Part shown: one piece after another, positions 6,001-62,495 of the stretch | Position numbering within the stretch: the first letter of the stretch is position 1 | Layout: each line of letters opens with the position of its first letter | DNA from: an uncultured Planctomycetia bacterium | GTDB taxonomy: Bacteria; Omnitrophota; Gorgyraeia; CAYWPX01 | NCBI GenBank assembly: GCA_964460615.1 | Contig: CAYWPX010000003.1 | Coordinates: 155,028 to 219,027 of the forward strand | Length of the DNA stretch: 64,000 bases | Direction: 5' to 3' | Notes under the pieces: model-generated | What the model saw: the letters and a program-made list of their open reading frames with translations, nothing else | Told to the model about the DNA's origin: nothing | The model's database searches: none | Translations under genes and position numbers: made by a program

Positions 6001-7080
6001 GAGCTAAGGCCGCTCGCTGTCAATGGGTTTCTGGAACTAATGGCAGGAATCCTCATAGCACCTGTAAACTCAGTTACAAAATTCCCATTATCATCTACTA
6101 ATGCCAGCCTTATATAAGTATCACCGTCAGCCCCTACAAGCCTAACATGATTGGATCCGGCAGCGGCAGTATTCCCTTGAATAATTCTAGTATTTTTGAA
6201 TGTTCTATCTTTAGAAGTATTTACTGCAAGCCTGTAACCTGCCGGCAGGTTGTTAAATACCAACTTATTTCCGTCAACTATGTGAGCGCCGATATTAGCC
6301 GCTGTAAGACCGGTTGCCCCAAGCGGATTAAGTACCTGCACATTGTGTAAAGCAACTGCTTTAGAGGCATTGCCTCTAACGAATTGGTTCTTTACTCCTG
6401 TAAGAGCTCTTACTCTTATCGCCTTTGCATTAGTAATAGGAATAAAGAATTTAACGGTGCCATTAACAGGATGATCTATATAATATCTCTTGACATATCT
6501 TTCGCTGGAAAATACCCTGTTTGCTGCATCATTTTCAGTTTCACCAGATAATTTTCTGATAGGTGCAGTGGAAATTTCTATCTCATAACCTGTCGCACCC
6601 GGAACCGATGCAAATGTGAAGAGATTCGTTCCGGTCGTATTCCTGAAAGTACTGGCATTCGGTGGATTAGCCGCTGCGGGAGCTTCAAAACCAAGCCTTG
6701 TCAAATTGCCGGAAGTATAAGCATTACCGGTCTCTCTTTTCTTAATAGAACCGTTAGCCCCTCTTTCCAGCACTCTTATAGTATAAATTCTAACATATTT
6801 ATGCCCAGCGCTGCTTTTAAGATAAACTGAAGTGTTGTTTGCGCCTCTTACTGAATACCCGACGGTCTTACTGTTCGGGAAGGTCGGATCGGATGAGGTC
6901 TGAACATAATATTCTATATCGCCGGTTGTATTAGCCGGTTTGGCCCATGACAACTTATAGTCATTTGTTATCTTGAATGTGGTAGCAACGGGTGGTTGCG
7001 TAGCACGTCTTGGGACCAGGTTTGACAGGTTCAATGCCTCTGCAGGAGTGGTTATCGCAGGATTACCCAACAATGTCACT
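1..7080 (-). repeat. C-terminal array of at least 12 Ig/FN3-like beta-sandwich modules (continues beyond the window)
   Basis: Recurrent module signature …W…P…(I/V)QTS(S/K)xxxF…Y…LYKSxGH(T/K)Y(V/I)R(V/I)…D(E/A)NG…WSE. Examples: GHTYVRYAIV, KYMRVALV, KYIRVALATD, TYIRLALVDDNG, GHKYVRIYTI, GHTKIRVRTVDENG, GHTKVRIRKIDENG, GHKKLRIRQVDQYG. Confidence 0.55.
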
Positions 7081-10000
7081 CCAAGTAATATCGTTGCGAC
7101 AATTCTCTTATTGGCGATCTTTGAAATTGCCTTCAAAAGGCCTGCTCTTAATCTAGGAATAAATCCGATATTGTCAACGACAGAACCTTCTCCGCCATTG
7201 AGGCCATATGTAAGCATTCCGTCTTCATTCTCAGTAGCAACTACAGAACCAAATTTTTCAAGTAACTCATTAAGCTGATTCTCGGCTTCAACCCTGCTTA
7301 CCCCGAATTCACTTGCATAAGAATAGATATCGTAAGAAACATCGTTTGCAAGCATATTGCAATAAGCCATATTGATATTAAGAGTTTTTCTTGAGGTAAA
7401 GTTATGATAGTAATAAGTAACACCGTCCTGCGTATCGCTCTTTATGTTGCTATTGTTGAGAACGAGATTTTCTAAAATTGCCTCCAAATCCTCGTCTTCA
7501 GATTCGCCGTATAACTCCCTTACCTTGTCAAGAGTGATGACATCTCCCTCCATCATCCTGTTATAGAGAGTAGCTGAAGTTAATTCTTCAAATGAAATAT
7601 CAGGATCTGTAATAGCGTTGAACCTATATAACAACCTGCCGTCATCAGAACGTGATTTTATGACTTCTCCGGAGAATATATTATAAGCATAACCAAGATC
7701 TCTATTGGCGGTAGAATAGCTGATCTTACCGTCTTCGCCGAAGTGTTCGACAAGAGCATCTCTATATTCCTTGATTGTAATATAAGCACCACCCTTAGAC
7801 TGGAGATATGCCATAAGGAAGTTAAGGCGTTCCATCCTCTTATCAACTTTTTCTGCGCCGGCCAAAGCTGCATCTGAAATTTCGGCGTCAAGAACAAACG
7901 TATCATTAATATATACAAGCACCTCATTTGCCTCGGCTTCGGTCAAGTCACCTCTCATATAAGCGGCCTGGAGCATTGAAGCGACTTCACCCAGCGACAT
8001 TATCTCGTCGTTATCTATCAAATAACTTAAGTTAAGCTTCCATATTTCCTTATCAAGTTTGTCTTCTTCGGCTTCTTCTGCCTCAGCATGGGTCTTTGGT
8101 TCGCCCAGGACCGCTGTATGTTCCATCATCTCGTGAAGTACCTGCCTAAAGAGAGCTTCCCCGGTTAAATAGCTTGTAACAACAATATCGCCTGAATTAA
8201 TGTCTGCTCTATTAAGATTAGCCGCCTCAATATCAGAAACAACGTGGCCGCTCACATAAAGCATTCTTCCGAATTCGCCTTCTTCGTCCAATAACTGCAA
8301 GGCTATGGAAGGCGCCCCGCTGGCATTTGTAACAAGCTTGACTCTACCGGAATCGATAAAGTTCATTGCTTCATTATACTCATCTGTCCCTGAACCAAAG
8401 TAGTTCCTGAATCCTTCTTCTAATGCCGCATATGCGTCAATATCATTAACAGCTTCATCTACAGCTGCTTCAGCTAATGCATCCTGAAGCTCTAAACCAA
8501 CCTCCGGATGCGATGAACCCTTGTTGATCAATTTGTCTGAATCAATTATCTTCTTACCGGACAGCGGATCTATGCCTCTTCTAAGCATGTCTACCCACGC
8601 TGTTGCACCCACATGGGCAAATCTGTTATCTAAAGGATAAAGTTGTCCGTCTTCGCCGACAATAGCTATGATGCCGCCATTATATTCAACGACTTTACTG
8701 AATTGAGAATATAAAGCTGCGCCCTTTTCATCGTCCCCAGTCAAAAACGCCAACATAGCAGCACCTGCTGTTAATTCAGAGTTAAACGACGGACTGCCTT
8801 CGACAACCTTAGACGCATACCCTTCAAGAGTAACTTTACCGTAAGAAACTTTATTAAGGGATATTTTGTCAAGGTATGGGAGAGTATTAAATGTAGCAGG
8901 ATCTATACCTGTAACATCCTTGGTCGCATATAATGCTAAAGGCGCCCAAATATTGTGAGTAGTAGGCTCTTCGCTTGAATAATTCGGATAAATGAACTTT
9001 CCAGTGCCTTCATCAGTTGTACCAACCAAGAAGTTTTCACCTGTCCACATACCGCCCTGAGACACATTCTTGGTCATCCATGTTAAGGCAAGTTTACCGG
9101 CATCGATATACTTCTGGTTACCGATAACTTGTCCCAATTTGATGAGCGCAGCTCCTGCAGTAGCATTATGTTCGGTTGAGGCCCATTCAATAGGGATATA
9201 ATACTTGGTATCATAGTTATCTCCCAGATAATCGGCGTTTGGATATTCAAGTCCGCCCTTTATCGCTCCGTATATAGGACTTGAAGAGTTCACTATCTGG
9301 AACTGTGACACCCATTCGGCTGCTTTTGTAGCTGCATCAAGGTATTTGGCATCATGGGTCTTTTCATATAAGTTAGTTAAGAACATGATATTCCATGAAA
9401 CAGGGCCAACCGCTATATTACCGGCATTAATCTGGCCGTTAACATCATAACCGTCTACCCACCCGCCTCTAAGGTTTATACCTTTTACAACAACGCTTTG
9501 TTTAAACTGTTTTGATATCAGGTTATCTGCAAGTACCTTAGCAGTCGCAAGATCCTGCTGAGTACCGCTTGCAACAAGCGAAATGCCGGTAACACCGACG
9601 TCATACGTCCAGCTGGAACTGTTGTTATACTGCTTGTAGCTCCTTAAAACTCCGTCAGAAGATATCTGGTCTCTTAAGAATGTTTCCATATTGGCTACGG
9701 AAACAACCGCCGGGCCGGTCTTCAAGGCATCCATAAGTTTCGGCCCGCCTACAATACCTCCGATTCCTAAGGTAGCAATGAGTACCGCTACAAACGCTTT
9801 TTTATCTTTTACCCATTTTATAAGCTGGTCTATCCTTGAAACATTAGGAGTAAGTATTTTATCTGTGATCTGAATAGCTTCTTGAACATTAGTATCATCA
9901 ATAGCATCCTGTAGTAACGAAAGTATTCCATCATCACCTCTGGCTAACAATGCCTCTCGTATCTCAGGATAATAAACCCCTTCGGTTTTGGCATATTCAA

Positions 10001-13000
10001 TAACGTCGTATGTCAATTGGTTACTGTCGGTGTCATATAATGTAAGTCCATCAAGTCTTTCGAGCGTCCTTGAATCAAGGCCCTGAGCAGACAAGACTTC
10101 AAGAGCAAATCCCTTTTCATCCTGAGTTAAGGACTTAAAGAGAATATCCGCAAAATTCAAATTGTCTATTTCATCTGTCTTTGTGAGGAAGAACAAGATC
10201 TCTATTTTTGCGTCTATGGATAACTCCGTAAAATCCTGTACCTTGCGTATCGCAAGCATAACCTCGGTAATATCAGCCGGCGGTGCCCTGTTACCAAGAG
10301 CATCCAACTTGACATGCCTTAGCTCTTCTTTTAATTCCATCTTGAGCAGGTCCTTGGAATCAAGTATGTCGTTATCAAGAGTATAGGTCGGGATACCATT
10401 ATCATCATAAGAAACTCTCGCAAGCTTGCTGTTCCAGACAACTATATTGAGGTTAGTACTAAGCGGGATACCCAGTTCTATCGCTGCTTCCTTAAGATTC
10501 TTGGCCATCCTCAGGTTTTCATCATTAGAATCAAATCTGGAGAGGTCGTCACCGCCTAATGTTGTAATCAATCCTTCAAAAGTCCCGTAATATATTATGG
10601 TCGTATTGCCGGGCCTTCTGGATATAGATGAAGTATTTACGCTTGAAGGCGTAACATGGACCGCTCCAAGAGCCGTGAAGGCATCCTTAATATTCTTAAC
10701 TATCTCCTGATAACCGGCTCCTTCTATAGGTATCGTTCCTTCGGGACTATCCGTATAATCGCCCAATCCCATATTCCCCGCCGGATCATCCTTAGTATCG
10801 CCTACACCCATCAGGGTCTGCCATGTGAAGATATTGTGGCCGTCTGAACCGTTTGTAGTAAATAATTTGTTTGTGGCATACCTTGCATCATTGTTATTAA
10901 GATCATCCAATAATTCCTGCAACGCATTCCTATAATCAGGCTTCAGTTTACTTGAATACATCTCAACGCCTCTTATCTGAGTATAAGAAGTCAGGAAGGC
11001 CCTCAAATATGTCATCTGGTCTTCAAGCGTCACTCTTTCGCCGCTCTTATAGGTCACCTCAACAGGATGTGGTAATACCAAGACACCTTTTTGAGCAGTT
11101 ACAAAGTTTATAACATCATTTATCGGCTGACCGTCCCTTATTCCTGATCTTTCGAAAGAAACATAACCCGTCGGGCCGTAATTAGGATCTTCTGGGTTGG
11201 TTGACCTGTTCTTTTTGAAATATTTTGCATTAACTTCTTTATAATTCGAACAACCCAATCTTTCGGGGCCGTATTTCTGGAAAAGAATGAGCGATAACTG
11301 ATAGGAATTGGTCAAGTCGGATATCTTACCTTGTAAATCTTCTTTGGTAAGTTCCAGCCCTTCATACCAATCCGGATGCAGATTCTTCTCGTTAAAGTTA
11401 GAATTAAATTGCATTCTCATCTTTTCAGCCCTATTAACACCGGTACCGAAAGCATTAGGATCAAAATAAATTCCATCCATTGTATTTACCATATTTACTA
11501 CTGGTGAGCTATTAAGGAACGTCTTATATGCATCGGCACTGCCTCTATTAGGGAAATAACCTATCAGATGCTGGCCGCCGGTTATACCTCTGGGGTCATC
11601 AATAAAATCAAATTCAACACCTGTAATAACTTCAATTCCAAGCTTATCCGAAGAAGCGTAGCCGGCAGAAAGAACCTCGCCTGCTCTTAAAGCTTCATAA
11701 TGGCTCCTAAAGGTGTTATGATCAATGATACCTATTGAGCTCAAGCCCTTCATCCATGCTTCGAGCACAGCTCCTGCCGGAGTAAGGTTGCCATCTGAAT
11801 AATAGGTATGGTAATGCATATCAACTCTGCCTTTTAATTCAAAGGTTCGTTTTACCAAATTTTCATTACTCTTTATGGCCTGTAGTGCCTGTAAGCGCCT
11901 TGCAACCCTGGCATCTTCGCTTACTTCATTCGGAAGCTTGTCATTGACCACTACAAATCCGGCTACAACCTTTTCAGCTGCCTTAGCTGAACCGCTGTCA
12001 AGTATGGCTTTCATACCATCGATTATAGTCTTATGCATCGCAGGAGTGGCATAATTGATGGCAGTATTATAAGCTGCTACCGCCTTTTCTATCTGGCCAA
12101 GAGCCATAAAGTTGGAAGCGTCTGCAAGTGCCGTATAAGCATCTTTTCTACCGATATAAGACAGGTTCATGAAGTTGCCATTCTGATCATACATTTCAAC
12201 CCTGTCTTTGTTTATGATAATATAACCGCCTGATATCGCTCCGCCACTAGTAACATAAAAATTATATTTCTCCCCATCAGGTGTCATAACAACAGGGCTT
12301 AATGTATATTCTGAATTGACATCTCCCCTTATAAGCTCAATAAATGTTGCATCAAGAGAGGCCTCGTGCAGAGCGCCAATTTCAGCAACATCAAGATCAA
12401 ACATGGTCCTGATGTCATTCTTTCTCTCACCAATTGCGCCAATAAGGTATGACTCTAATCCACCGTCTCTAAGGACCTGATTAAACATTTCTATAGGATT
12501 CTGTCTCTGGGCGCGGGTCTTTCTGTTCCATCTGCCGGGAACATTTTCAGTGCTCAACTGATCCAACCAATCATTGACCATGCTTAAGCTATGAGACCCT
12601 GTAAGGTTTTTACTACTGGTAAGCTGTTCGGCCAGAGATAAACTTCCATTAATGATCGCGCTGATCTGCTCAGGCTTAATTGCCTGAAGGATCGTTGCCA
12701 AATTGCTCAATTTGTCATCGTCAGTCTTTGCCATTTTGTATGCTTCATTAACAAAAAGCTTCTGATCATGCCTTACAATATTAAATATTTTTTCAAACTG
12801 TACCGAATCAAAATAAGGCAGGAACTCAGAAAAACCACCTGTAGGCCTTGAGAACATCGTGCCGCCAAAGTCAATATGTACTATATCCTGATTGGTACCC
12901 GAATTATCCGAGACATCATTGAAATCCGGGCTATTGAACATCATATTCCAAGGAGTCCTATCAGAATCCCTTAAGAGAGCTGATAGCATCAATGCCCCAT

Positions 13001-16000
13001 ATACCCTTGCATCATCATGATATCTCTCCAAGAGATTCAACCCGCCATCTTCATATCCAGGCAAAAATTCTATGGCCAGCCTCAGTTCTTTCTTGCGCTG
13101 ATATGGCCCGCCTGTTGCGCTCAGATCTCTCTCATACGGTTTGCCTTTAGCATAGTCTTTAACTTTATAACCGTTCTCATCTACCCTGAAACCTTCTACG
13201 GATATATATGCCCCATCCCTGTCATGTATATAGGCATATACCAGAGATGTCTTTGGTACCGGTAAACCCATTAGCGCAAAGAACCTCTGTGTCATATAAT
13301 CGATCAGTATCGTATATTCATTGCCGCCTTTTACTAAATACAATTGACCTGTGTGTTCATCCTTATAGAGATCAATAGGATTGGTTGTCGGCCTTGTAGG
13401 CACCCCAAAGAACTTCTGATAAGAAAGATTCTCAAAGTCTGCCTGGGAAATCAGGTCCTGACCGTTAGCGGCTTCACTGGCAGTCTTATTGGTAATATCA
13501 GAATAATTAGCCGGATCCTCCCTATTAGATTCTAAGTCAGCGCTGATCAATCTGTATACTATAAAGACATCTATAGGTATGCCGTCAATTTCATAATTAC
13601 CAGTTGTATTAAAATAAGACCTGAGAATATCTCTCGGTCCGTTGGAGCGGATCTCTTCTCTTATTCTGATCACGTCATCGTTAATACTATTATTGATAGC
13701 CTGGAGATACACATCAAAACCCTCAGGCCTCATATTAACAAGTGCTTTTGCCGAAGCATTCCTAAGTTTGTCCCTGTCATCATCTGTACCGCTCAAATAG
13801 TCATCACCGTTCAAGGCCAGGTTTACAAGCTCTTTCCTGATATTCTCGGCAACTTCAGCGTCAATCTTAGAACCTTCGCCATAATTAAGAGATCCGATAA
13901 CATCTATCATCTGTATCTCGTTCTCCGAAGGCGCATGATTCGAGATATTTGCCACTAAAGACTCCAGTCTTTCAATACCATAAGACGACCCTATGCTCTT
14001 AAGAGTCCCGGCGGCAGCCTTAACTAGTTCAATGGTATTATCAGCTTCTGAATTTTCTAAAATATTAAGAAGAAGCGTTATTCCTCTTTCTCTTAATTCC
14101 TTGACAGAAGCATTATAGCTGGGGTTTGAAGGATCTATCAAAGGCGAATTATCCTTGATCCTACCAAGCATATCCTTAAGCACATGTCCTGCAATGGTAG
14201 TTCTGATCTGCATTCTTATATTAATGTAGTAATCGCTGTCGTATGGGAAATAAGCTTTGGCTATGTTACCATCTACATCTTCAATGATATCAAGCAGTCT
14301 CTGCATCATCGTTGGATTATTCTCAACTCTTATCGGATTTATCGCCTCGGTAATAGCCGGCCAACCCCAGAATTCTTTATCATCACCTAAGGATTTAATA
14401 CATCTATTGAACGCCATTTCCCATATACGGATATTTTTGGATTCAAGCATTTCAGTGATAATTTCTTTGGCGTTTTTCCACAGGTCTTCATCAGTGAATT
14501 TATTCTTCAGTACTCCAAATATTAATTCAAGCGCCTGCTGCCTGTAATAATTTGTCCCAAAGGTATCTTCCATCTCAAGGTTAAAATACATCCACCTGAG
14601 GTTCCACAATGTTTCTATTCTCTTGGGAAGCTTGTCGGGTGACAGATCTCTCAGTTCATTTCTGGCGGCAGTGATATATGCGCTAGCATAATTCTGAGTA
14701 GAACTACCTAACCCAACATTTTCTTCCCATTCAGAGGTTCTTAGCCCCGGCGCCATAGCCTGATAAAGTGCAAGTTTTTCATATCTAGTCAAACTCGGAT
14801 GGTTAGCAATAATAGCATCCAGCTTATCAAACCTTCCGGACCCTGAGAAATTGGAACCAGCCAAGTCAAGCCATGATGCTGGATCAGAGCTGATCAATGT
14901 TAGCGCCTCTGACATGGCATTTCTTGCCTCATTGGAGTAGGTCGCGGCGGTAAGAACCGTCAAGCTAAATAGATGCTCCCACCCATATTTCAGCCCGCTA
15001 TTATTGTATATCTCTACGAGGTATTGTTTCCTTGCAAGTTGCGTTGAGCTTGGGTTGTTTGTCACATATGTATTATATGCCTGTACAAGTGGAGTAAGCT
15101 TGTCTAATGAAATCTGATGTTTGGCTTTTACAACTGCTTTTCTTGCAGCGTCTGATACTGGTTTTGTTGCTAATACGGTTTCGATCTTTAGCATCAGTTT
15201 ATTCTGGAGGGCGACGTTGGAGGTAGAAAGAATGCTATAAACTAGATTTGGCAATTCTGAAGCCAATTTAGCAGCTAAAGCCGCGAGATCAGCACCATCA
15301 GTTTTTATTAAAGTAAGCTCTGGATCAAATAAAGAATCAATAGCCAATTCCAACCTTCCTTCATCTGTTTCTGAATGCAGGCTGGCCGCTATTTGACCAA
15401 AAAGTATATGCGATTGTTCATTATCAGCACTCAACGCCTGTTTAATAGCTTCAGGATAATTGCCTATGGCAATATGCCCATAATTAACCTGGGCTTTTAT
15501 TTCATCTATTAGATCCTTGTATTTTTCGCTTTCTGCAAAATCACCTACATTTATCGCCAGCATAATATCCAAAACATCAAATATTGGCGTCAGTATACTA
15601 AGCTTCTGAGTTATATCATTTACAGAGCTAAATGTCAGGAGATCATTGAGATTGGTTATATTAAGCCCTGCTGCTATGCCGGCAACTTCAGGATTAAATG
15701 AGGTTGTCATATTATTTCTGCCAATAAGGAGATTTCTAATAAAGTTTGTGGCAGACTGGAAGTATGTATTAGCATTTGCGCCCAATTCACCGGAAATATA
15801 TTTAGCAACTGCTTCATCAATGCTGAATTCAACTCCATATTCGGTTTCAAAGGCAGCTTTAAATGAATTGAAGTTAGTTAAACCCATAAGCCCGGACAAT
15901 TCTGCTTCAGTAAGCTTATTATTGACTTTGGAGTATAGTAAATGCCCCACAATATCATGCCACTGTCCGACGTACCTGTCAGTTGAAGCGCTGCTCATAT

Positions 16001-19000
16001 TGATCAGTTTCGCAACTTCTGAGAAGAGGTTCAGGAAACCTATATCAGTAGTAACCATTTCTTTGTCTTCTATAACAGGGTTACCATTATCATCAATTCC
16101 AGTCTGTATACTCACTGTTTCGACTTTAAAATCTGACCTATTGGCATTTACTATATCCATAAATGCGGATATAGACTCCTCAGAAACTCCCAAACTTCTC
16201 AATCTGCTTTCTATTGACGTTGTAAGAGTTGTGCTGAAATAATTGTGTACCGGCGGCTTGCCGTATGGAACCCTGGTGGCCGGATCAAGGCCTAAGGTAT
16301 CCATCATAGCATCCCTTAGATCAACAGCAAGGTTGTATTTTTCAAAAGAGTTATTGAGAACTGTATGCTTCTGTATCTCTTTTGTAAATATCTGCCAGAT
16401 ACCCTTATCCTGATACCTCACCATTTCTATAATAGCGCTTCTTATACCGTTTAATTTGGGTAATCCTACTGCATCATAAAGATCAAGGATCTTCTTGGGA
16501 TTATCTCTAAAGTTGCCATTTGCTTCGGCAAGCTCGGTAAGTTTCTTGAATTTCTCCTCAACGCTTGGGGTAGTAGTCTGAGCGCTCCCCCATGTATTAT
16601 ATTGGGCAGCAACATTATTTATATCCTTATTGGTTGAGATATTAGTAATTGCCCCCACTCCTGCTGAAATAAGCGGGCCGACAATATATGCCAGGGCATA
16701 TAACGAACCGACTACCCACGCGCCCCAGACAACTGGGTTAGTAGCATCAGTAGTATACTTGAAGATATTTCCGAACAAACCAGTTAATAGTATTACAAAA
16801 GGAGCATGACCAATAGTGCGAATAAATGTCCCGTATATACCTTTTGAATCAAGGAACTGCGATAATCCCAGGAACGGCTTCAACCAAATACTTGCTTTAT
16901 TGTATTCTTCCTGCTGTTTTGCCGTAAGATCATGAGGTACGTTGTTCCAGAAAGAAATAAGCGGGCTAAGTAAATACGCTCCTGATACTGCTATACTAAA
17001 CGGTGACAAGCTCAAAGCAGCCCAAGTCAATAAAGCACCACCAATTATTGTTGGTATCAACTCAAGATTAGCAAGGTCAGATCTCAACTGAAGCCAAGGA
17101 GTTAAAGTTGTGGTATTTCCCTTTTCATCAGTTCTAGTGTGAGTATAGCCCGGGATCAATAAAGTAATCATATCCCATGGAATTTGTAACAGATATTTAA
17201 TGGGAAGCAACTGGCTAATCTTAGCATCATCTTCTACAGAAGATGTAGATACGAATTTTGCCTTCTCGCCAAGTAATTTAATAAATGTCTCCCACATCGC
17301 CACTATTGCAAGTGCCGGATAGAATAAAGTTGAGTAGGATACAAAATTGAGCATCTTCTTAGGTGTCTTTGCCATATTAACAAAGAAAATAATAAGAGGC
17401 GACATCAACGTCAACACTGTGATAACGAGGAATTGCGGCCCCACAACACGGCCTGCCTCAAGGGGAACATATGAATCATATAATAACGCCTGTATCAGAT
17501 AGAATACGAATACGAAGTTAAGAGGCAAATTGGATACAGGCACAGTAACATCCAGTTTCTCTATGGTAGTCATCTGTGAACTCCAGATCTTACCTCTCAT
17601 GGCGTTCTTAAAGACGCCGAATAAGAACCCTGCTTCACCTGCAAGTATGCCTTTCTGGAGTAACGACATATCTCCCAGTATATTCGATACATAGTTCCAT
17701 ATCTGGCCAAAGTAACCACCTACGCTGGTAACGGTATTATGTTCCACTCCGCCGCCGCCCGTAAACAAACTCAATAAACCGAATGTCGCAGCAAAAGCTC
17801 CCAATGCCCATAAGGCATCGGTGGCTTTCTTTGTTCCGAGGAATATATAATCCCTGAAGAATTCTACTGTACCGCCGGACCATTTTTTGTGCCTTACATA
17901 GAATTGTGTGAAGTTCTCAGGGAAACCTTCCATGGCGGATACACCTCTGGCGAATACACCGTAGTTACCGTGTTTTTTCATAAACCTCGCCTGCAGAGAG
18001 AACGCCAAGTCTTCGGAAACTATTTCTGGCCATCCCTGTCCGGACCTGCCGTCATAGGAACTCCATCTTACATCTCTCCATACGCTTCTTCTGTAGAGAA
18101 CTCCATGGCCGAGAAGCATTACGAATCCGCCTTTATTTCTCGGATGCTGGTACTGGTTCCAGTGGTGGTCAACGCCCGTGCCTACCTCATCGCTGAATTT
18201 TGTCTGGATCGTAGGATCGAATACGTGATTCGACTGTACAAACGCAACCTCATCATCATAGAAGTACGGCAGCATCTCCTCAACGTAATTCTCTGAGAAT
18301 ATTTCATCCTTATCGGTTAGAAGAAGGAAGTCATCAGCATCTGTTGTTTCAGCCTGCAGTGACAGGTTCATTTGCCCTGCTTTTGACCCGCCCTCAACAT
18401 CGGATATTATTATTTCAACATCCGGATATTTTGCTCTTAAATATTCAACCGTATCAAGTAAATATTGATAACGGATCCTCTTCTTTTCATCACTAAGTTT
18501 CTTGTTGGCAAGTATACTGCTGGAAATAATTACTCTATAGTTGCCATGGTGTCTAAACGACTGATTAACAACTGATTCAAGGGCCTTTAAATTGCCTCCA
18601 TCTTTACCGGGTTCACCTATACCGCTTGACGTCGGATACAACGCAGTAACGGTCTTCCCTCTAAAATCGCTATAATTCTTTAGCGGCATATCACCCTTAT
18701 CAAAATATGACATACCTTCCACAACCCAGTTGAAAGCACCATATAACCAGAATATGCCCCAGAACGCGAATATGTTGATCAGATTGAGCTTGATCCAAGG
18801 ATCCTGTTCAGATATAAGTTTTAGTTCAGGTATAATGGTCATCGCCGCAGCGGATAATGATAATCCGATGATAGTGCCCCAGTTCCTCCAGCTCTTACGG
18901 GATTTTTCACTGGAGTTTTTGTTTTCGCCGGCTTTAATGAATTTGGATATAAATGTGAATAAGGCTCCGAGGCCGGGTATTATTTCCATATTTAACTGGC

Positions 19001-22000
19001 TTGAAGATTCCTGGGCTGTTTCAGCCAATGCCTGTTTAAGCCTCGCTATTATGCCCCTTGCTTCTTCTTTTGTAGCCTCATCAGCTGTAGCCAGATTACC
19101 TGAATCGAGCTCTCTCTCAAGATCGTCGATCATTTTCTGTGAGTCTAGCGCACCGGTATTTTCATCCGTCAAGGTTGTACCTTCTTCATTGGCTAGTTTA
19201 TTTAGGAACTTATCAGAAAGCTCTTTATAGACCTGGGCAGCTTTTGTTTTCACATCATCAGTTATACCCAGGTTATGAGCATCAAAAGCCCATCTCTGCA
19301 GAGTCGATAAAGCCGGGACAAGGAATAATTCAGAAGTAAAGTCAAGGTTTCTCAATGCTTCCATTAACGCTATTTCATAAGCAACATTTTCTTCGGTTGC
19401 TATTTCATCATAGCAATATTCGTAAATACCCGACAACTCTACTACAAGAACATCAACAGCTTTCTCTGAACCCATCTCTGCTAGTTTTTCAACATAGTGA
19501 TTTCTCAGTTCAGCCAGCTCAGGCCTTTCAGCGGCCGTTGGGTAATTGGCAATTACTATTCCGATATTTTCTATAAGCTTACCAAGGGCAATAACTGCAT
19601 CTCCCGAATCATTCTGGCCTGCATTGACTAAGAAGGTCAGTATAACTTCCCTCAGTTCTATATCGGACTTCGACCCTTCGATCCTGTTACCCATGTATTC
19701 CAAGGCATCGCTATTGAAGGCTATATTGTCAAGGGCTTCAAGTATATTGCTCTTTTGTATATTAGTGGTAGCGGCTTTGTAATAAGCAAAAGATTTTTCC
19801 AATATCAAGATCATAAGCTGTAAATGCTTCCCGCTATCCTGGGATTCATCATAAGCCTGAGCTCTTAGTACAGCTTCATTTAAAGCGTCTTTTGCCGCCT
19901 CTACTATCAAAGGTGAAGAACTATTCAGTCCATAAATGGACAATAAATCGCTTACGATGTTAGTAGTGTTCATTGTAGCGCCTGTTACGCCCAGTCTAGC
20001 CCTCGAGAGAACTTCTTTGTAAATATTTAGACCGCTCAGAGCCTTATTTGGATCGGTGCTTCTCACTCTTGCAAAGGCCTCTACTGAGATCCATTTGTCA
20101 AATTCGGCTCCAAAATCAACACCACTATTAACTGCAGCAATAATTGTATCGATCTTATTTATCATATCTGATTCGGCTGAACCCAATATTCCTCTTGCGT
20201 ATGCTATAACAAGCTCGTCTTTCTGTTCCTGCGTCAAAACATTCACATTTGGCCTTAAATTAATAATATTTAAGGCTGTTGACACATCAGTTTTAGAGAC
20301 AACCTGTATCAGGATACCGCCAATGGAAGTATTAGAGACCTTCTGTATCGTAACGCCAAGTTTAGCGGCGTTATATTCAAAAGCCTTTATCCAGAAATCT
20401 TCATTTTCGAGTGTTGGGCTGATATCATGACCGGGCCTAAAATGTATGAGCCCGCCGGCTTTTGTGATCCTGAGCGCTTCGCTTATAAAATTATCAATTG
20501 ACATCATATCAGGAGCTTCATCTTCATAATCAACAATAGAGTCTATCAATGCCAATTTATCAACCGTTGAATCACCAATACTAAGCCTGCCTTTGGTAGC
20601 ATCACCCATTGTGAACTGGGCATTCAAAGGAACTCCATTAGAAGGCAAATTCCTACTTGTAAGGCTATTCAGGAAGTCTTTAAGCTTAAGGCCCTTTAAT
20701 GTAAACGCCCTTTCAGTCTGAGGTGAATTGAGATATCTTATTAGCTTTCTCATAAGATTAAGGACTATCGGGGACTTAACAAAACCGATTACCGTGACCC
20801 CGTCCATTCTCCCGGCTGTAAGAACATCATTGCCGTCTTTTGATAATGATACGTAAAGATCTCCGGCAGTTAATGAAAGAGGGTTCAATATATCACCGGC
20901 AGAATATGATGTAGCAGACGGTTCTGACTGATCAACGACGAGCTCTTTAGCCGGTTCTCCTGTTACTATAATACCGACATTATCTATAAGGTCTTTATAT
21001 GAATTATGAGTGGATATATCAAGACCATTATAGGACTTATTCTTAAGGTAAGATTCTGCAGCGATAAACGCAATAGGATTGGTTACTGCAACGGATACAT
21101 TCTTGATCTTACCGTTATATGCTACCTCGCTGATCCACTTCATAACCGCAAGATACACATTGATATCCTCATCGGTTGAAGTGATCGGGGAAGTCGGGCC
21201 GAAGGATGAGATGTTCATATTGGAACCACTCATTGAGTATGATATCTCGCCTTTCACTACTCCATTGACAACTATGTCATAAACATTTATACCTTTTTCA
21301 ACAAGCAGTATCTGGTCAAGATCTGACTCAACAACATTTTCTATTGCAACGACTATATTGGCATCACCCTTAAGTACCACACCTTTGCCGCTTGCTATCT
21401 GAGCGTCGATCTTGGCCTTAACCTGGTTATCAGAGAGATTATAGGATATCCATGCCTGGGTAGCTTCATCAAACATCTGGATATTTTTAAGGAATCTCGA
21501 ATAAATAGCTAAGGTCGCTGAATCCAAAGCTGCAGGAAGATGGAGCTTCTTACCTTCGCTTCTTGCTATAGTAACTATCTTATTTAATTCAGTTACGAGA
21601 TCCCCGCCTATCTTATTAAGTTTGAATACCTGGACTTCATCTACCTTAGAAACATATCTTACATCAGCGTTCACAGCATCAAATGACGCCGAGTTAAGGA
21701 AGTCAGCCATATCGTTATCGCTGGCATCTTCCAAGACCATAGGTGTAGCAGTATTCTTTATAGCGTTAAATTCCGCTAGTGCAACCTGGGTTGAAGGGAA
21801 TCTTTCATTAAATGCGTTGCGCATCAAAGAAATTGCCTGCAGATTACTGAATGACGCCGCAAACTGATCGCCATCAAGACTTGGGTTACCGGCCAGATCC
21901 TTTACGGCTACCAGCGCTTCAACATCTATGATGACTACATTACCATTTTCGTCCACTCCGTAGTTATCCGCGAATCTTGTTATGTCAAGATCTACATAAC

Positions 22001-25000
22001 CGGCTGCCCATAAAGCAGTCATAAGCCTTACGACATTTTCAAGGAGCGCTTTAGCGCCTTCAGGGTCACCGTTATTTAAAAGCTCATTTGTTTTTTCATT
22101 GAGCGTTGTCACTTTATTCTGTACAAGCGCGTGGGTAATCGTTTGGGTGTGCATAACATTGGCTTCGTCTAGATAAGTAATATTCAGGTTTTCCAATGCC
22201 GTATAAGGAGCCGCTATTCCTCCTAAATATGCCTTCAAGGTCTGATATTTCTGCCAAGCGCTTGGGTCTGAAGTCATATCTTTGATTACAAAATTACTGC
22301 CATCCTTGGAATAAACAGGGTTTGTTGCCCCTGAACCCACGAGATGTAAAGGTTCGAACATATCAGTCATAGAATCAAGGAACGCTTTTCTAGCAGTATC
22401 AGTTTCAAACATTTTTACATAGTTGGCTTTGGCTTTGTCAGGATCTTTTTCAAAGTTTGCCTTGAATGACTCTCCATCAATCGCCTCAAGTGAACCTTTA
22501 ATAACCGCCAAGATATCGCCTTTTACCTTTTGGTCTAAAAGGCCGCTATTAACCATAGGAGTAAGGAGTAGTCCATCGATATAAGTTTCGGAATCCTTGT
22601 GGCTGAATCTATCCATTTCAACCGCGTCCATCTCGGTACCTTCTGCATTGAAATCATACATATGATAATCATAGCCTTTGACATCGCCTGATTCAGTCAC
22701 TCCATAATTAAGCATTCTCTTGCCGTCAAGGTCAATAATGCCCCTCTGCCACATCTTGATCTGGACATCACAGTAGCTGTCAAAAATTCTCTTTAATTCA
22801 TCATACTTTTCCTGGATAAGCTTATTCTTCAATTCCTGGTCATAAGATTCATTGTTCTTGATAGCCATAACTGCCTGGGCGATCAACTTGACTTTATCCT
22901 GTATGATCGTAAGGCGTTCCTGTGCCCTTATTTTGGTAAATGTTCTGACAACCTTTGAGCCATTGTCATTTTCAATGACAGGTATACCGGCTTCATCTTC
23001 TATATCAATGGTTCTTGCAAATATATCGCCAAGGGCTTCTTCAGTGTCTCTAAGGTGCTTTGTATCTAATCCCAAAGGATCACTATCTTCACTTACAACT
23101 TTGACTACATACTTTTCGCCTGCGATCTCAAAGACCTCGGCTTCAGCGCCGCTAGCCAGGCTTATGATCTCCCTACCGCTTTCTCTTGTGATAAATTCTT
23201 TATACTTAGCATCCATTGACACCTTTAACGAGTCAGGATCTATACCCATTTCACTAAGCTTATTTCTTAATCCCTGGTCCACGGCGCCAGCTGAAAGCTT
23301 ACCGCTCAGGTAGCCAAGAACTATGGATTTGGATTCACTCTGATATAGATCAAAGAAATTAACAACATACGGCCATGCTTGCTCCCATGCCCCTGATCCG
23401 ATCGGGCCTATAGTAGTAACACATATATCCTGCATCAACTTTAACGCATTTTCATATGACAGGCCGACAAAATCAGCTATCCGATCTTTATAGGCGGCTA
23501 TTGATTTGTTGATTTTATTCATAACGGCCTTATCGGCATTAGTAGGCTCGCCTAACAAATATTCATATGAACTTCTAAAATTGAAATCAGCATCGCCGGT
23601 CGGATAAAGGTTCACCACAAATGCTCCGCCGGTTATGCTTAATGTCCCGTCTTCAAGGACCCTTGTGATTATGTCATCCTTATCTACCTGAATATTTGTC
23701 AATATATATATAACAGACCTGTAGTATCCTCTTGCCATATCCTGATTGCCTTTAAATTCCGCAATCCTTGCAAGTGTCAGAAGTGCCAGAGCTTCGATCC
23801 TATTAAGATGGTTTTTCTGTGCCTGGAATGCCACATTTATTGCCACCATCTTTGACTTCTCGATCTCAGCCGAATCATTCCATCCAAGGTTTAGCAATGC
23901 ATTAGTAATGGCGAGATACCTTTCTATATCTGTGCTGTCAAGGCCGCCTTTCATCCAGGTAATATTATCCGGAGCAAAGAAAAGCCTTGCGCTCTTAAGG
24001 CCTTCTATATCTTTATTTCTGAGTGCTAACTGCGCATCTCTAAGCTTCAGAGAATAATACCCGCCGGCTATCTGGGCTGAAGATATCAGACCTCTTACAG
24101 CATCATTTGTCAGGTCTTTTATACCCGGGTACGCATCCGTAAATCTGACAAATGTGATCAACTGATCTATTATTTCATCATCAACCTGTTTTTTACTAAC
24201 GGCACTAAAGGCAATATTGTAATAAGCAGCTGATGTTGTTTCCTTGATCATATCAAGAAGTATTGATCTTTCATTATCAGATAAACTCACCAAATATTTG
24301 AGATCACTTATCCTGCACATGATCTCGCTCACGGCAGGATTGAATCCGGTTGTATTCAGGTGTTCTGCTTCGTGTACGAGGATCATCTTAAGGAATGCAA
24401 CCTTCTGTTCCTTTGTATAAAGTGTATTTGTAATCAGATTGATATTTATATCAATACTGGCGTCATATCCTATGCTATGGTTTGCAAAACCCAGGAAGTC
24501 AACATTTTCATAGAACCTTATTTCATCAAACATAGAAAGGTTAAATTGGCTCCCGAGCTGGCTTACCGCTTCGCTTAATAACTCACTTATTAAGCTATGA
24601 GTCGGGTCAAATGCCAGTACGCGCTGATTGATATCGTGGGTTGCCACAGCTAAGACTACCTGAGGTTTATCGGTATTTGGCGTATCTATCTCAATGCTGA
24701 AGGCCTCATTGGCAGTCACAAGAGAGAAATCGGGTATAATAGCGCCGGCATTCCTTGCTATAGCATAGTTAACCGCTTCAATAAGATATGTAGTATCAGA
24801 ATTTAGGATCAGGTTTGCATTGCCCAATGCCGCATCATGGCCCGCAAGCGGCATACCTATCGAGGCCAATAATTTAACTCTGTCCCTTACAGAATCTCTT
24901 ACACTGTTTAAGAGAGATTCTGTAATATCCGTAGCGCTCCCTGTCAATTCATCGATCGCCAATGTCAAGATATCCATTGCATCAAGCGCTGTCTGATGAT

Positions 25001-28000
25001 TATCGGGGTCTTTGGCTGCTATGATCTTTGCCACATTAAGAGCCTCATCAGCTAAGATCGTCTTTCCGTCGGCGATAGCTTTTGTCCTTATATAATTTGC
25101 AAAGGCAAGAGAATCGGTATCATTAAACACCAGGTTGGCAAGGCCTGTTTTATCACCCTTTGCTATTATTTGGATATCTGACAGCTTTGTACCTTCCGCT
25201 GCTTCAGTATAGTAGAGGTCGTCGAGATACTGAAGTGATTCGTTTATATTCTTTAAAAGAGGCCAGAAATTAACATGAGCAAAATTACTGTCATAGGCAA
25301 AGAGAACCATTGCCATTCCATAGTCGCTCAGGTTGTATTCGGCCTGTATCTGAACGAGGTCATTTACAGAAGCAAACCTGTTATTCTTTGTTTCTAGGGC
25401 CTTAATAGCGTTATTCACTCTTACTATCATGCCAAGACTTGCAATAGAAACGTTATTAGATATGAACTCGGCATTCATCAGTTCACCGTTTGCGCCATTC
25501 CCGTCCCTTAACTTCTTTATGTCTGCAATTTCTGAAGGCGTGAAAGAAAGATTAAGTATCTGATAAACCATTGTCTCCGGCAATCCTGTATCCTGAGCTA
25601 TCTTGGCTATGTCTAATGGATTAACAAGTTTAAATCCTGTTATAAGTTTTTCAACGGCGTTAGCTGCGGCAACAAGCTGAGTATTACTGGATCCCTTAAA
25701 TATTCCCAAAGATAATTTAGCAGAATCAATTAATTGTTTTCTCTTCGATTCAAGTTCGTTGATCTTGGATTCTATTTCATTGACTACGCTCTCTTCCTGG
25801 TTAGCTTTCCAGTTATTGAGATATAACCTCACCATATCGCTGGATAGCATATCTGCAAATTTGATTTCACCCTGTTTATCAGGATCGCTTATTATGCTGA
25901 GTAAAATCTGCCTTATCTGAGCATCTACGCTTCTTAACTCATTTTCAGATGCCGCAACAGGATTATTTACATTTGCTGCCAGATCAGTAATATCCAGGAC
26001 AATACTATTATCCATAGCGGATAGATTGGCTTCCGCCTGTATAAGCGCGTCATAATTGGCCACAGGGTCCATGAGGAACATTCTGGCAAACGCGGTATTT
26101 ATCTCCGCTTTTCTGGTGATATTAAGCCTTGTAGATATTTCGGTGAGCGAGAATACCTCATTTTCCGGATCACTAATATAATCAACATCGAAAGTAATGG
26201 TGTGGCTCTTTACATATTCGCTCAGATTCGCCTGGGCTTCTTCAAATTCTGCTTTAGCTTCATCCATTCTTACCTTATGGACTTCTTCGGCCTCGCCGTC
26301 TAGTTCTCTAAATGCGGCTACTAAATTTGACTGGGCAACGCTAACTGCGGCCCTAAGCTGGTCTATCTGGTACTGCCTTGTGACAAGCCTCTGCACCATT
26401 GAACTTGCCTGCATATCCTGGGTCTTGCCGGCTATAAGTGCTAAGACCTGGTATTGCGGGTTAGAGGATTTTATTATATTTTTAATATTTGTAATATTTC
26501 TTAGGTTAGCCGCTACATCACCACCGTCCCATGAAAGAACTCCGGCAAACCCTATAGCCGCTTCACCTATCATAAGGATGGCATTAACTTCATTATCTCC
26601 GAAAGTATCAAGCGATATTGCGCTCGCATCGATAAGAGCACCGATAAGATCCACTGCTTTCTTATCATCGTCGCCTGCATTTGGTATAAGGGCATCTATA
26701 ACATTAGGATCTGAGTTTATCTTATTCCTTAAGCTCATAACCGCTTTTATGAACTTCTTTGCTCCGTCAGTAACATTCTTAAGGCCGGTAGCGGGATCAG
26801 TGGTTGTTAATCCTCTTGCGTCAAGCTGTGATCTGATGGCGCTCTTTGCCTCTTCGCTAATGCCTTCCATGCTGTCAATAGCTTCATCAACTGTCTCGGT
26901 GGCAGAAATCTCAACCTTTTTCTCTGTGGACATAGGTGCCACTTTTGGAAGCATGCTTTCTGTAATACTGGCATTTATTGATTCGAGGCATTCTGATAAA
27001 CTACCCGCTAAAGCGATCGGTGTTACAGAGCTATCCGAGGTAAGGGCAAGATTTATATCTGTGGTAGAAACAGCCATGGCTTCTGCTGAAATACTGCTTC
27101 CGACAGCAGTATTGGCAATGGCTTTAAATTCATCCGAATTTGTGATAGCATTCAGGAAGTTATCGGCTTTTTCCTTAGCCGCTTTGAGGCCATCAAGGCC
27201 TGTCTGGGCATTTCCTAAGCCGATATTTGTATCAACACCGGACTGATTCTGGAAGTCACTTATGGCCTTTTCGAGGAATGAATATTCAGCTTCTGTAGAA
27301 GCAGTAGCCCTGAGGCCTTCTAAGAAATGGACTAACGATTCATCTATAGCATCTGTAAGGTGCCTGTATAATAAATTTTGTCTTTCCGTTTGTTCGTTTG
27401 CATCAATAAGAGCCATAAACTCATCTTTTGTCACTTCATTGGCAAACCCTGTCGGCGGCGCCCTTTCAGCGTCAATATGGTCAATAACTAGTGAGTGCAA
27501 AAGCGCGGCATTGGCGGCTCCATTTGAAGTCACATCATATGTAAACCTTAACTGCCCTCCGGCAAGGTCCGCAGCTACATCATCAAGGGAGATCCTGCCT
27601 TCCCTGAATGCCTGGGCATCTTCGGCGGTATAAGCATATACGAACTTTCCGCCAAGCCTTACACCCCTATCTCTATTGAGCAATTGTTCTATATCGGTAG
27701 CCTTTGAGAATTTATCTGTTATTGCATGTACTTCTACATTACCGTTAAATACAACATCTATACCTCTTGTTGCGCCAAGTGTGAACCAGAATCCGACATT
27801 ATCGCCCGGGCGGACATCCATATATTTCTTTACATCCGGGTCCTCGGCTGTTGGATTGGCTTTTTCGAAATCAATCCTGTTATGTTCGCCAAGATTAAGC
27901 CTGCCATCAACAATGTCACTGGCAGTAACCCTGTACCAGTCTTCATGCTGGCCTTTCACTATAAACACATCTCTCTTTGAAGCATCTGTCGCAGTTAACA

Positions 28001-42266: not shown

Positions 42267-42269
42267 CTA
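42267..42269 (-). other. Single in-frame TAG inside a YD-repeat (…ITTYNIYGDM-TAG-SVQDKNGRKTYYKNFRDSKGDLIKRYEK…)
   Basis: Verified by reverse-complementing 42181-42281. The same frame and repeat register continue on both sides. The next in-frame ATG is 166 codons downstream (41769-41771). Confidence 0.9.
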
Positions 42270-62459: not shown

Positions 62460-62466
62460 AGCTTTT

Positions 62467-62471
62467 TCCTT
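62467..62471 (-). promoter_or_regulatory. Ribosome-binding site AAGGA, 7 nt upstream of the ATG
   Basis: Minus strand reads aaaaaaggaaaaagct then ATG. Confidence 0.5.
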
Positions 62472-62495
62472 TTTTAATATTCAGTTCCTAAACTG

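Follow-up and report, generated by a model that had tools for sequence, protein, structure and literature searches.

A Putative PI3K/PI4K-Like Kinase and a PHP Phosphoesterase Within a Giant Reading Frame of an Uncultured Bacterium

All Modules Lie in One Giant Reading Frame

The stretch of DNA analyzed here, 64,000 nucleotides from contig CAYWPX010000003.1 of an uncultured Planctomycetia bacterium (hereafter the window), carries on its minus strand a single stop-free frame of 14,088 codons (window positions 3..42266), as detected by a six-frame stop scan. An open frame of this length cannot be a chance product, and it holds all of the modules that are described below, including the two that are in the focus of this work, a kinase domain behind a helical solenoid and a phosphoesterase of the PHP superfamily. 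Residues are numbered from the right end of the frame, such that residue 1 lies at window position 42266 and residue i at 42266-3(i-1) and downwards. A first-pass annotation had flagged the segment from 11060 to 23200, which corresponds to amino acids (aa) ~6,355-10,400 and lies wholly inside the frame, and had read it as a set of two APH-like kinase folds, a PI3K/PI4K-like kinase, and a PHP phosphoesterase next to a GT2 synthase, built into one protein. All five motif strings on which this reading was based are present in the minus-strand translation and fall into the same stop-free frame, so that the single polypeptide stands, as do the PHP domain, the GT2 synthase, and the PI3K/PI4K-like core. 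The APH-like folds were not confirmed, and the functional reading, a Wzc/CpsB-type control of polysaccharide synthesis, was not supported. Open reading frames (ORFs) on the plus strand of the region were dismissed as shadows of the minus-strand frame. The modules follow each other along the protein in the order of a K1/K2 unit (kinase-like, unverified), a membrane GT2 synthase, the helical solenoid with the kinase, a TPR linker, and the PHP domain. Pfam scans were carried out with a 4,048-aa translation and with ten overlapping 500-aa chunks.

A Kinase Segment With a PI3K/PI4K/HipA-Type Catalytic Loop

The kinase domain was delimited to aa 9612-9960 (window 12387..13433, minus strand) by means of its homologues, their alignment, an AlphaFold2 (AF2) model, and Foldseek. 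It contains the motifs DRTPWN (aa 9769-9774) and HIDFG (aa 9797-9801), its key residues are Lys9646, an acidic residue at position 9656, Asp9769-Arg9770, Asn9774, and Asp9799, and an insertion of ~50 aa is found past strand beta-4. The segment alone yielded no match in the PDB, and a word-index search for homologues was also empty. An exhaustive HMMER search against 1.84 billion representatives, on the other hand, recovered 48 homologues with identities of up to 48%, ten of them with E <1e-30, which mostly reside in proteins of 1,000-6,600 aa. The word-index search had missed all 48, and its negative results, including those for K1/K2 reported below, thus constitute weak evidence.

An alignment of 28 sequences of the kinase family (A1) revealed that Lys9646, Asn9774, and the DFG aspartate Asp9799 are invariant (28/28), that Asp9769-Arg9770 is present in 27 of the 28 sequences, and that the alphaC position 9656 is occupied by D or E throughout (28/28). 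When the members of A1 were compared with Pfam, PI3_PI4_kinase was matched by 12 of the 28 (best E 3e-5) and HipA_C by three, with other families being matched by one member each; the full-length sequence of the closest homologue, P0002, reached 21.8 bits (E 2e-4) against PF00454. The Pfam check for a PI3_PI4_kinase domain is hence positive at the level of the family and negative for the query itself, which scores 12-13 bits vs. a cut-off of 27.1. Among solved structures, the family profile matched best to PI4KA, PI4KB, TOR2, and mTOR at E-values of 0.05-0.2, and in the profile alignment the PI4KA string DRHNGNIML...HIDFG stands opposite the family string DRTPWNMMF...FIDFG. The AF2 model computed with A1 has a predicted local distance difference test (pLDDT) score of 86.2 and a predicted template modeling (pTM) score of 0.87, and its elements follow the canonical order of beta1-3, alphaC, beta4-5, hinge, alphaE, catalytic loop, and DFG. 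In a Foldseek comparison of this model with the PDB, the top 50 matches were all of kinase fold, the best template modeling (TM) score being that of CtkA (0.46). A viral structure library yielded 12 matches with E <1e-3, of which those with an annotation are kinases, including a phage protein annotated as “PI 3-/4-kinase catalytic domain” and a giant-virus PI3K, and a second giant-virus PI3K followed at E 1.6e-3. The top structural matches overall were large uncharacterized proteins of two Gordonia phages, GodonK and Sixama, together with a protein of 1,201 aa that bears the name of an HK97-type phage portal protein. It may be that related kinase domains are carried in phage virion proteins.

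As judged from the conserved residues and the predicted model, the segment is a genuine and probably active domain of protein-kinase fold, with a catalytic loop of the PI3K/PI4K/HipA type, that lies outside the current Pfam boundaries. The PI3K/PI4K-like catalytic core suggested from the HIDFG motif is thus backed by family-level and structural evidence for the kinase fold and the PI3K/PI4K-type loop, with a single-sequence Pfam match that remains below the cut-off. In common with the PI3K/PI4K/PIKK kinases (PF00454), the window kinase has the D-R-x-x-x-N loop and the (H/F)-I-D-(F/N)-G metal-binding motif in PI3K spacing as well as a helical solenoid ahead of the domain. Furthermore, no other Pfam model recurs in the family in a way comparable to PF00454 with its 12 of 28 members, and PI3K-annotated proteins of viruses rank with the best structural matches. 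In contrast to these kinases, the family matches stay below the Pfam gathering score and at E >=0.05 in the PDB, only ~40-90 residues align while the N-lobe and the C-terminal helical bundle are without detectable sequence similarity, and the hosts are giant multi-enzyme chains of bacteria. The activation-loop segment SR-x-GG-x-x-F also appears to be unlike the basic phosphoinositide-binding loop. The HipA/CtkA kinases (PF07804; PDB 3akj/3akk/3akl) share with the window kinase the D-x-x-x-x-N type of catalytic loop; the TM-scores of CtkA (TMt 0.46, probability 1.0) are the highest for any solved structure, and weak HipA_C matches occur in 3/28 members. However, the TM-scores are <0.5 at identities of 9-13%, HipA_C is matched by fewer members than PI3_PI4_kinase, and the window kinase has neither a HipB-like partner nor a toxin-antitoxin context. 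If active, the domain would phosphorylate a hydroxyl group with the gamma-phosphate of ATP, whereby Lys9646 and Asp9656 would position the ATP, Asp9769 would act as the base, and Mg would be bound by Asn9774 and Asp9799.

A PHP Phosphoesterase That Groups With TrpH and RNase AM

The PHP domain occupies aa 10145-10500 (window 10767..11834, minus strand), was defined by Pfam, alignment A3, and a PDB profile search, and contains a helical insert. The strings DMHYHTYYSDG and VLVLPHP start at aa 10149 and 10395, respectively, and PF02811 is matched with 30.0-32.9 bits vs. a cut-off of 26.4. Candidate metal ligands are His10151, His10153, Asp10182-His10183, Glu10218, His10233, His10400, Asp10475, and His10477, and the corresponding motifs HxH, DH, E, H, H, and DxH are invariant in the seven sequences of A3 (the window protein and six relatives). 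The last motif, GSDGH, is encoded at window 10836-10850 and thus beyond the left boundary of 11060 that had been drawn for the flagged segment. With a Pfam score above the cut-off and invariant metal-ligand residues, the assignment to the PHP superfamily was confirmed.

The family profile of the PHP domain matched the PDB entries 3e0f (1.1e-20), 2yb1/Cv1693 (5.2e-13), 7ug9/RNase AM (4.8e-11), and 9etk (3.2e-10), and PHP domains of PolC were found as well. The best partial matches in NCBIfam were a histidinol-phosphatase-domain model, RNase RNM, and the 3′,5′-nucleoside bisphosphate phosphatase, and all three stay far below their cut-offs. The matches to the latter two cover only the N-terminal ~75 residues of the domain and miss the equivalog cut-offs (30.8 vs. 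375 bits for RNase RNM and 28.4 vs. 400 for the bisphosphate phosphatase). No chain named CpsB or YwqE occurred in the PDB profile list at E <=1, and no CpsB-type family was matched in Pfam (E <=5) or NCBIfam (E <=1). A PHP of the CpsB type was therefore rejected, with the closest structures being TrpH, RNase AM, and bisphosphate phosphatase, and by sequence comparison the domain is assigned to the TrpH/RNase AM/pAp-phosphatase type and not to CpsB. Like TrpH/YciV (RNase AM) and the Cv1693-type PHP proteins (3e0f/3o0f, 7ug9, 2yb1), the window PHP has the complete set of metal ligands; unlike in these, motifs IV and V are separated by a longer insert (~165 aa), and the domain is embedded in a giant protein beside a kinase and scores far under the NCBIfam equivalog cut-offs. 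Its metal center would be expected to hydrolyze a phosphate mono- or diester.

Solenoid, Kinase, and PHP Form a Recurrent Cassette

The kinase is preceded by a helical, HEAT/ARM-like region (aa 9131-9590; window 13497..14876, minus strand), which was recognized by phmmer comparison with the homologues and their loci. Residues 9131-9676 align in at least 12 proteins, so the helical region is kept together with the kinase, and HEAT_2 matches occupy the equivalent region in relatives. The linker between kinase and PHP contains a TPR-like repeat (aa 10053-10072; window 12051..12110, minus strand), which matches Pfam TPR_11 at E 0.004-0.006, below the cut-off. Downstream of the kinase, the same PHP subtype is present in L002, L005, L007, P0004 (directly adjacent), P0005, and P0010, and in P0011 it is located upstream. 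The succession of solenoid-kinase and PHP is thus a recurrent cassette in the relatives. A kinase gene of 2,384 aa, P0022, is located on a 613-kb scaffold (L009), and behind it lies a PHP+PHP_C gene of its own in convergent orientation, so that the kinase-PHP link also appears to span gene boundaries; an ADP-ribosylglycohydrolase gene also adjoins P0022 (L009 15252-17263 for this neighborhood).

Six kinase-bearing genome loci were analyzed, all of which are stop-free end to end; three stem from Candidatus Omnitrophota, two from an uncultured Planctomycetia metagenome-assembled genome (MAG), and one is unclassified. The source names of P0003 and P0011 are likewise Candidatus Omnitrophota. Genome and metagenome contigs scanned with single proteins yielded no relative. 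An adenylate kinase (ADK) domain recurs ~700 aa upstream of the solenoid-kinase among L001, L002, L005, P0001, and P0009, and in L002 an adenylate kinase lies between kinase and PHP; the window protein lacks an ADK domain in the corresponding position. Further neighbors of the cassette in relatives are an ATP adenylyltransferase C-terminal domain (Ap4A-phosphorylase-like), LigT and 2H-SAK phosphoesterases, an HD domain, and a phosphoribosyltransferase, as well as an NTP transferase, GalE, UDP-glucose dehydrogenase, glycogen phosphorylase, glucosamine-6-P isomerase, and glucan synthase. A GT2 synthase does not consistently accompany the kinase-PHP pair. The closest homologue of the kinase, P0002 (NCBI MFQ6119279.1, on a 3-kb contig; 48% identity), is a fusion of GalE, HEAT repeats, and kinase and is labeled as coming from a “Methanosarcinales archaeon” MAG. 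This label may reflect a mis-binned fragment of an Omnitrophota epibiont of methanogens.

The Membrane-Embedded GT2 Synthase

Upstream of the solenoid in the protein, aa 7797-8540 (window 16647..18878, minus strand) make up a membrane-embedded GT2 synthase, which was identified from Pfam matches, a hydropathy scan, and the positions of its motifs. The catalytic domain spans aa 7907-8166 (window 17769-18548) and matches Glyco_trans_2_3 with 59.6 bits vs. a cut-off of 27 (E 4.7e-16), which bears out the GT2 synthase of the first-pass annotation; Glyco_tranf_2_3 and Glycos_transf_2 also match. The motifs TDKDE (aa 7984), SEDLA (aa 8084), and RHKKW (aa 8125) correspond to DxD, (T/S)ED, and a QxxRW-like motif. 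Two hydrophobic segments are found before and at least six after the catalytic domain, a layout that, as far as hydropathy can tell, is that of membrane-embedded processive synthases. A significant match of the GT2 region to a solved structure was not obtained by sequence.

The Duplicated Units K1 and K2

The two units that had been described as APH-like kinases are K1 (aa 6366-6545; window 22632..23171, minus strand), with the strings SGAEAEVF...YVVKV...GIIDLDGKRMLNYGV...GYDY, and K2 (aa 6639-6800; window 21867..22352, minus strand), with the strings GSGATNPVY...FVIKD...GYVDLDITRFADNYGV...IIDVEA, whereby YVDLDITRFADNYG lies at aa 6757 and IIDVEA at aa 6779. K1 and K2 match each other in BLASTP at E 5e-7 with 26% identity over 161 aa, and by this similarity they are a genuine tandem duplication and true paralogues. 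The positions shared by both copies comprise a G-loop-like SGA..V(F/Y), a (V/I)K, and W..G..DLD..R..NYGV.E.G.V...D.

Beyond this internal similarity the searches yielded little. No Pfam family was matched at E <=5, no kinase family in NCBIfam (APH, Kdo, CotH, and RIO included), and no PDB entry with significance. Homologues were absent even at E <=10, be it in the word-index search, in a hidden Markov model (HMM) search of giant proteins, or by tblastn against plasmids and phages. An hhalign comparison with the verified kinase family gave a probability of 0.4%, and the AF2 model, computed from a single sequence, is unusable with a pLDDT of 36.7. Moreover, the distance from the second Asp to the Asn is +6 in K1 (IIDLDGKRMLN) and +7 in K2 (VDLDITRFADN), whereas a Brenner-type HxDxxxxN requires +5. 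The two APH-like folds, which lack a family match, homologues, a usable model, and the Brenner spacing, remain a guess at the level of motifs. All of these results would also fit with K1 and K2 not being kinases but a lineage-specific duplicated domain, in which the G-x-G, V-K, D-L-D, and N-Y-G strings look kinase-like by chance, and we consider this a serious alternative, if somewhat short of an even bet. However, the positions kept between the copies are exactly the kinase-like ones, and the unit length of ~273 aa fits a fold of APH size. In addition, the two-sequence profile matched the GCN2 kinase (E 0.058) and AceK (E 1.5), which are both sub-threshold and among the second to sixth matches, and the GCN2 alignment correctly superposes the alphaE helix, the catalytic loop, and the DFG region of K1/K2. 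The odds that K1 and K2 have a kinase fold are thus roughly even.

Limits and Setting of the Giant Protein

The 14,088-codon frame leaves the window at its left end, and the C-terminus of the protein hence lies outside. On the other side it is preceded by a second stop-free stretch in the same frame (42270-62480), which contains an ORF of 6,730 aa (42267..62459). The two are separated by an in-frame TAG (42267..42269, minus strand) inside a YD/RHS repeat, in the context ...TYNIYGDM*SVQDKNGRKTYYKNF..., which is the sole stop across 62.4 kb of this frame; the next in-frame ATG follows 166 codons downstream. The TAG may stem from a sequencing error, reflect a nonsense mutation of recent date, or be read through. 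Within the window, the protein runs to at least 14,088 aa or, with the TAG disregarded, to at least 20,826 aa. Additional copies of K1/K2, the kinase, or the PHP domain were looked for elsewhere in both giant ORFs and rejected.

The TAG is flanked by RHS_repeat/YD matches (41181-41294 and 46611-46706, minus strand), and a DUF7402 domain occurs shortly after these repeats in the large frame. In the upstream giant ORF, the N-terminal part (58824-59765 and 47781-62480, minus strand) shows a hydrophobic segment (aa 47-65) along with a TSP3 repeat, an FKBP_C domain (E 4.5e-20), and a Peptidase_C39 domain (E 1e-7, aa 1138-1219), and three Laminin_G_3 domains (E 4.8e-41) are also encoded in this ORF. 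The C39 peptidase is located ~1,100 aa past the N-terminal hydrophobic segment and counts for the 14,088-codon frame only if both ORFs are one protein. A weak helicase-like stretch (ResIII E 4.5e-4, DEAD E 0.07) at aa 4265-4417 (window 29016-29474, minus strand) may be a divergent form of the SecA-DEAD-like domain of giant proteins. About 500 aa past the PHP domain, a partial match to the C-terminal domain of D-glucuronyl C5-epimerase (9042-9191, minus strand; 23.8 bits vs. a cut-off of 23.3) is accompanied by a weak pectate-lyase match, which hints at a polysaccharide-modifying alpha/alpha-toroid domain. Besides the multi-pass membrane synthase, the hydropathy scan detected ~30 weakly hydrophobic segments interspersed among the modules. 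A separate 411-aa gene (62746-63981, minus strand) upstream of the giant ORF codes for a Laminin_G_3/pentraxin-like protein, the exact sequence of which is absent from a large protein collection.

Giant multi-enzyme proteins, also referred to as “Archaeovorin” proteins, have been described for Candidatus Omnitrophota (10.1101/2023.11.21.568195; 10.64898/2026.06.07.730766), and a predatory or epibiotic lifestyle as well as a cleavage of the giant proteins have been proposed (10.1101/2023.11.21.568195). The window protein resembles them in a frame that is open over tens of kilobases and in the N-terminal position of the C39 peptidase behind a hydrophobic segment, and it shares with them RHS-like repeats, a HEAT/TPR scaffold, a glycosyltransferase, and numerous hydrophobic segments; furthermore, the closest relatives of its kinase module sit in giant ORFs of Omnitrophota. 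Given the N-terminal C39 peptidase and the RHS repeats, the architecture agrees with both descriptions (10.1101/2023.11.21.568195; 10.64898/2026.06.07.730766). It differs in that the visible chain, which is cut by the window, has 20.8k aa vs. the 30k aa that define the set, and in that the SecA-DEAD domain is represented only by the weak ResIII/DEAD match. A term search of the texts of both preprints found no PI3K-like kinase and no PHP domain.

Discussion

The flagged 12 kb probably encode an inner part of a giant and membrane-anchored multi-enzyme protein of “Archaeovorin”-like type, in which the kinase, the PHP domain, and the GT2 synthase are separate catalytic modules and do not constitute a regulatory circuit. 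The kinase would add phosphate to substrates of nucleotide or sugar type close to polysaccharide synthesis, and the PHP domain would take it off again. From the neighboring enzymes in relatives, we infer that the substrates belong to the class of nucleotides, sugar phosphates, or glycans; they would most likely be nucleotide/sugar-phosphate small molecules or glycans rather than the phosphotyrosine of a synthase regulator.

Several observations weigh against this interpretation. The substrate assignment is drawn solely from the co-occurrence of domains. Roughly half of the long relatives (P0001, P0028, P0039, P0043, L003, and L004) have no PHP domain of this subtype downstream of their kinase. 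The kinase segment alone reaches 11.9-12.6 bits (E 0.13-0.21) against the PF00454 cut-off of 27.1, and neither the sequence profile nor Foldseek gave a PDB match with E <1e-3; thus, the sub-family could be PI3K/PI4K-like or HipA/CtkA-like. The hydropathy scan does not place the kinase and the PHP domain on either side of the membrane. Finally, the Omnitrophota-like label is deduced from relatives with identities of 31-34% for the genome loci and up to 48% for all homologues.

A different fate of the protein is conceivable, namely that it is cut by the C39 peptidase or exported via an RHS/YD shell, and that kinase and PHP are delivered as toxin-like effectors, which act on lipids, proteins, or nucleotides of a prey or host. 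The succession of hydrophobic segment, C39 peptidase, FKBP, and RHS repeats would suit such a route, and so would the predation or epibiosis and the giant-protein cleavage that have been proposed before (10.1101/2023.11.21.568195). It would also be in line with the large phage proteins, one of them named a phage portal protein, as best matches of the kinase model in the viral library, and with the homologue on a short contig that was binned as a Methanosarcinales archaeon. Nevertheless, we regard delivery as unlikely: the modules are interleaved with a multi-pass synthase and ~30 weakly hydrophobic segments, to which a resident membrane scaffold fits better, the neighbors in relatives are metabolic enzymes of housekeeping type (ADK, GalE, UDP-glucose dehydrogenase, phosphorylase), and cleavage or export is hypothetical.

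A more far-reaching proposal, which we consider rather improbable, is that the solenoid, the PI3K/PI4K-like kinase, and the TrpH-like PHP domain make up an undescribed bacterial phosphotransfer system that is largely confined to the giant proteins of ultra-small Omnitrophota and related members of the Planctomycetes-Verrucomicrobia-Chlamydiae (PVC) group. Its substrate would be an envelope component of the prey or host or a signaling molecule, e.g., a lipid with an inositol or sugar headgroup or a nucleotide second messenger, and K1/K2 would be a second, orphan kinase family.

The first-pass annotation had drawn an analogy to the control of capsule synthesis by Wzc and CpsB. Wzc is a bacterial tyrosine kinase (BY-kinase) of the P-loop type. 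As in the systems of Wzc/CpsD BY-kinases and CpsB/YwqE, a kinase and a PHP-superfamily phosphoesterase are encoded near a polysaccharide synthase in the window; kinase fold, PHP, and membrane GT2 lie within 2,700 aa of each other in one polypeptide, and the relative L005 has a Glucan_synthase ~2,200 aa upstream of its kinase. However, the window kinase is of protein-kinase fold without a Walker A/B P-loop, and Pfam matched no P-loop or AAA family anywhere in aa 6340-10530, which led to the rejection of a Wzc-type kinase. TrpH, Cv1693, and RNase AM are the closest solved relatives of the PHP domain, which has no detectable affinity to CpsB/YwqE, and the association with a synthase is not kept in relatives, as L002, P0004, L007, and P0011 have the cassette amid nucleotide and sugar-nucleotide enzymes with no glycan synthase detected nearby. 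With a P-loop BY-kinase missing, a PHP domain of the wrong branch, and a linkage to the synthase that is not conserved, a built-in Wzc/CpsB-like phospho-switch by which the kinases and the PHP phosphatase toggle the neighboring GT2 synthase is unsupported and very improbable.

The textbook analogy to capsule control, though tempting, thus fails here, and what appears more probable is an “Archaeovorin”-like chain of separate enzymes. The host class of giant proteins was already described, whereas the unannotated kinase family and its partnership with PHP are new. The kinase family, with ~50 cluster representatives, has been missed by current family libraries and combines fully conserved catalytic residues with a confidently predicted fold and a PHP domain as its recurrent partner. 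Giant proteins of the Omnitrophota type consist mostly of “dark” sequence, of which one stretch has now become a testable unit, and the cassette of ~1,400 aa is small enough for expression and assay. If the proposed phosphotransfer system was true, it would be the first enzymatic handle on the action of giant proteins upon the partners of these bacteria.

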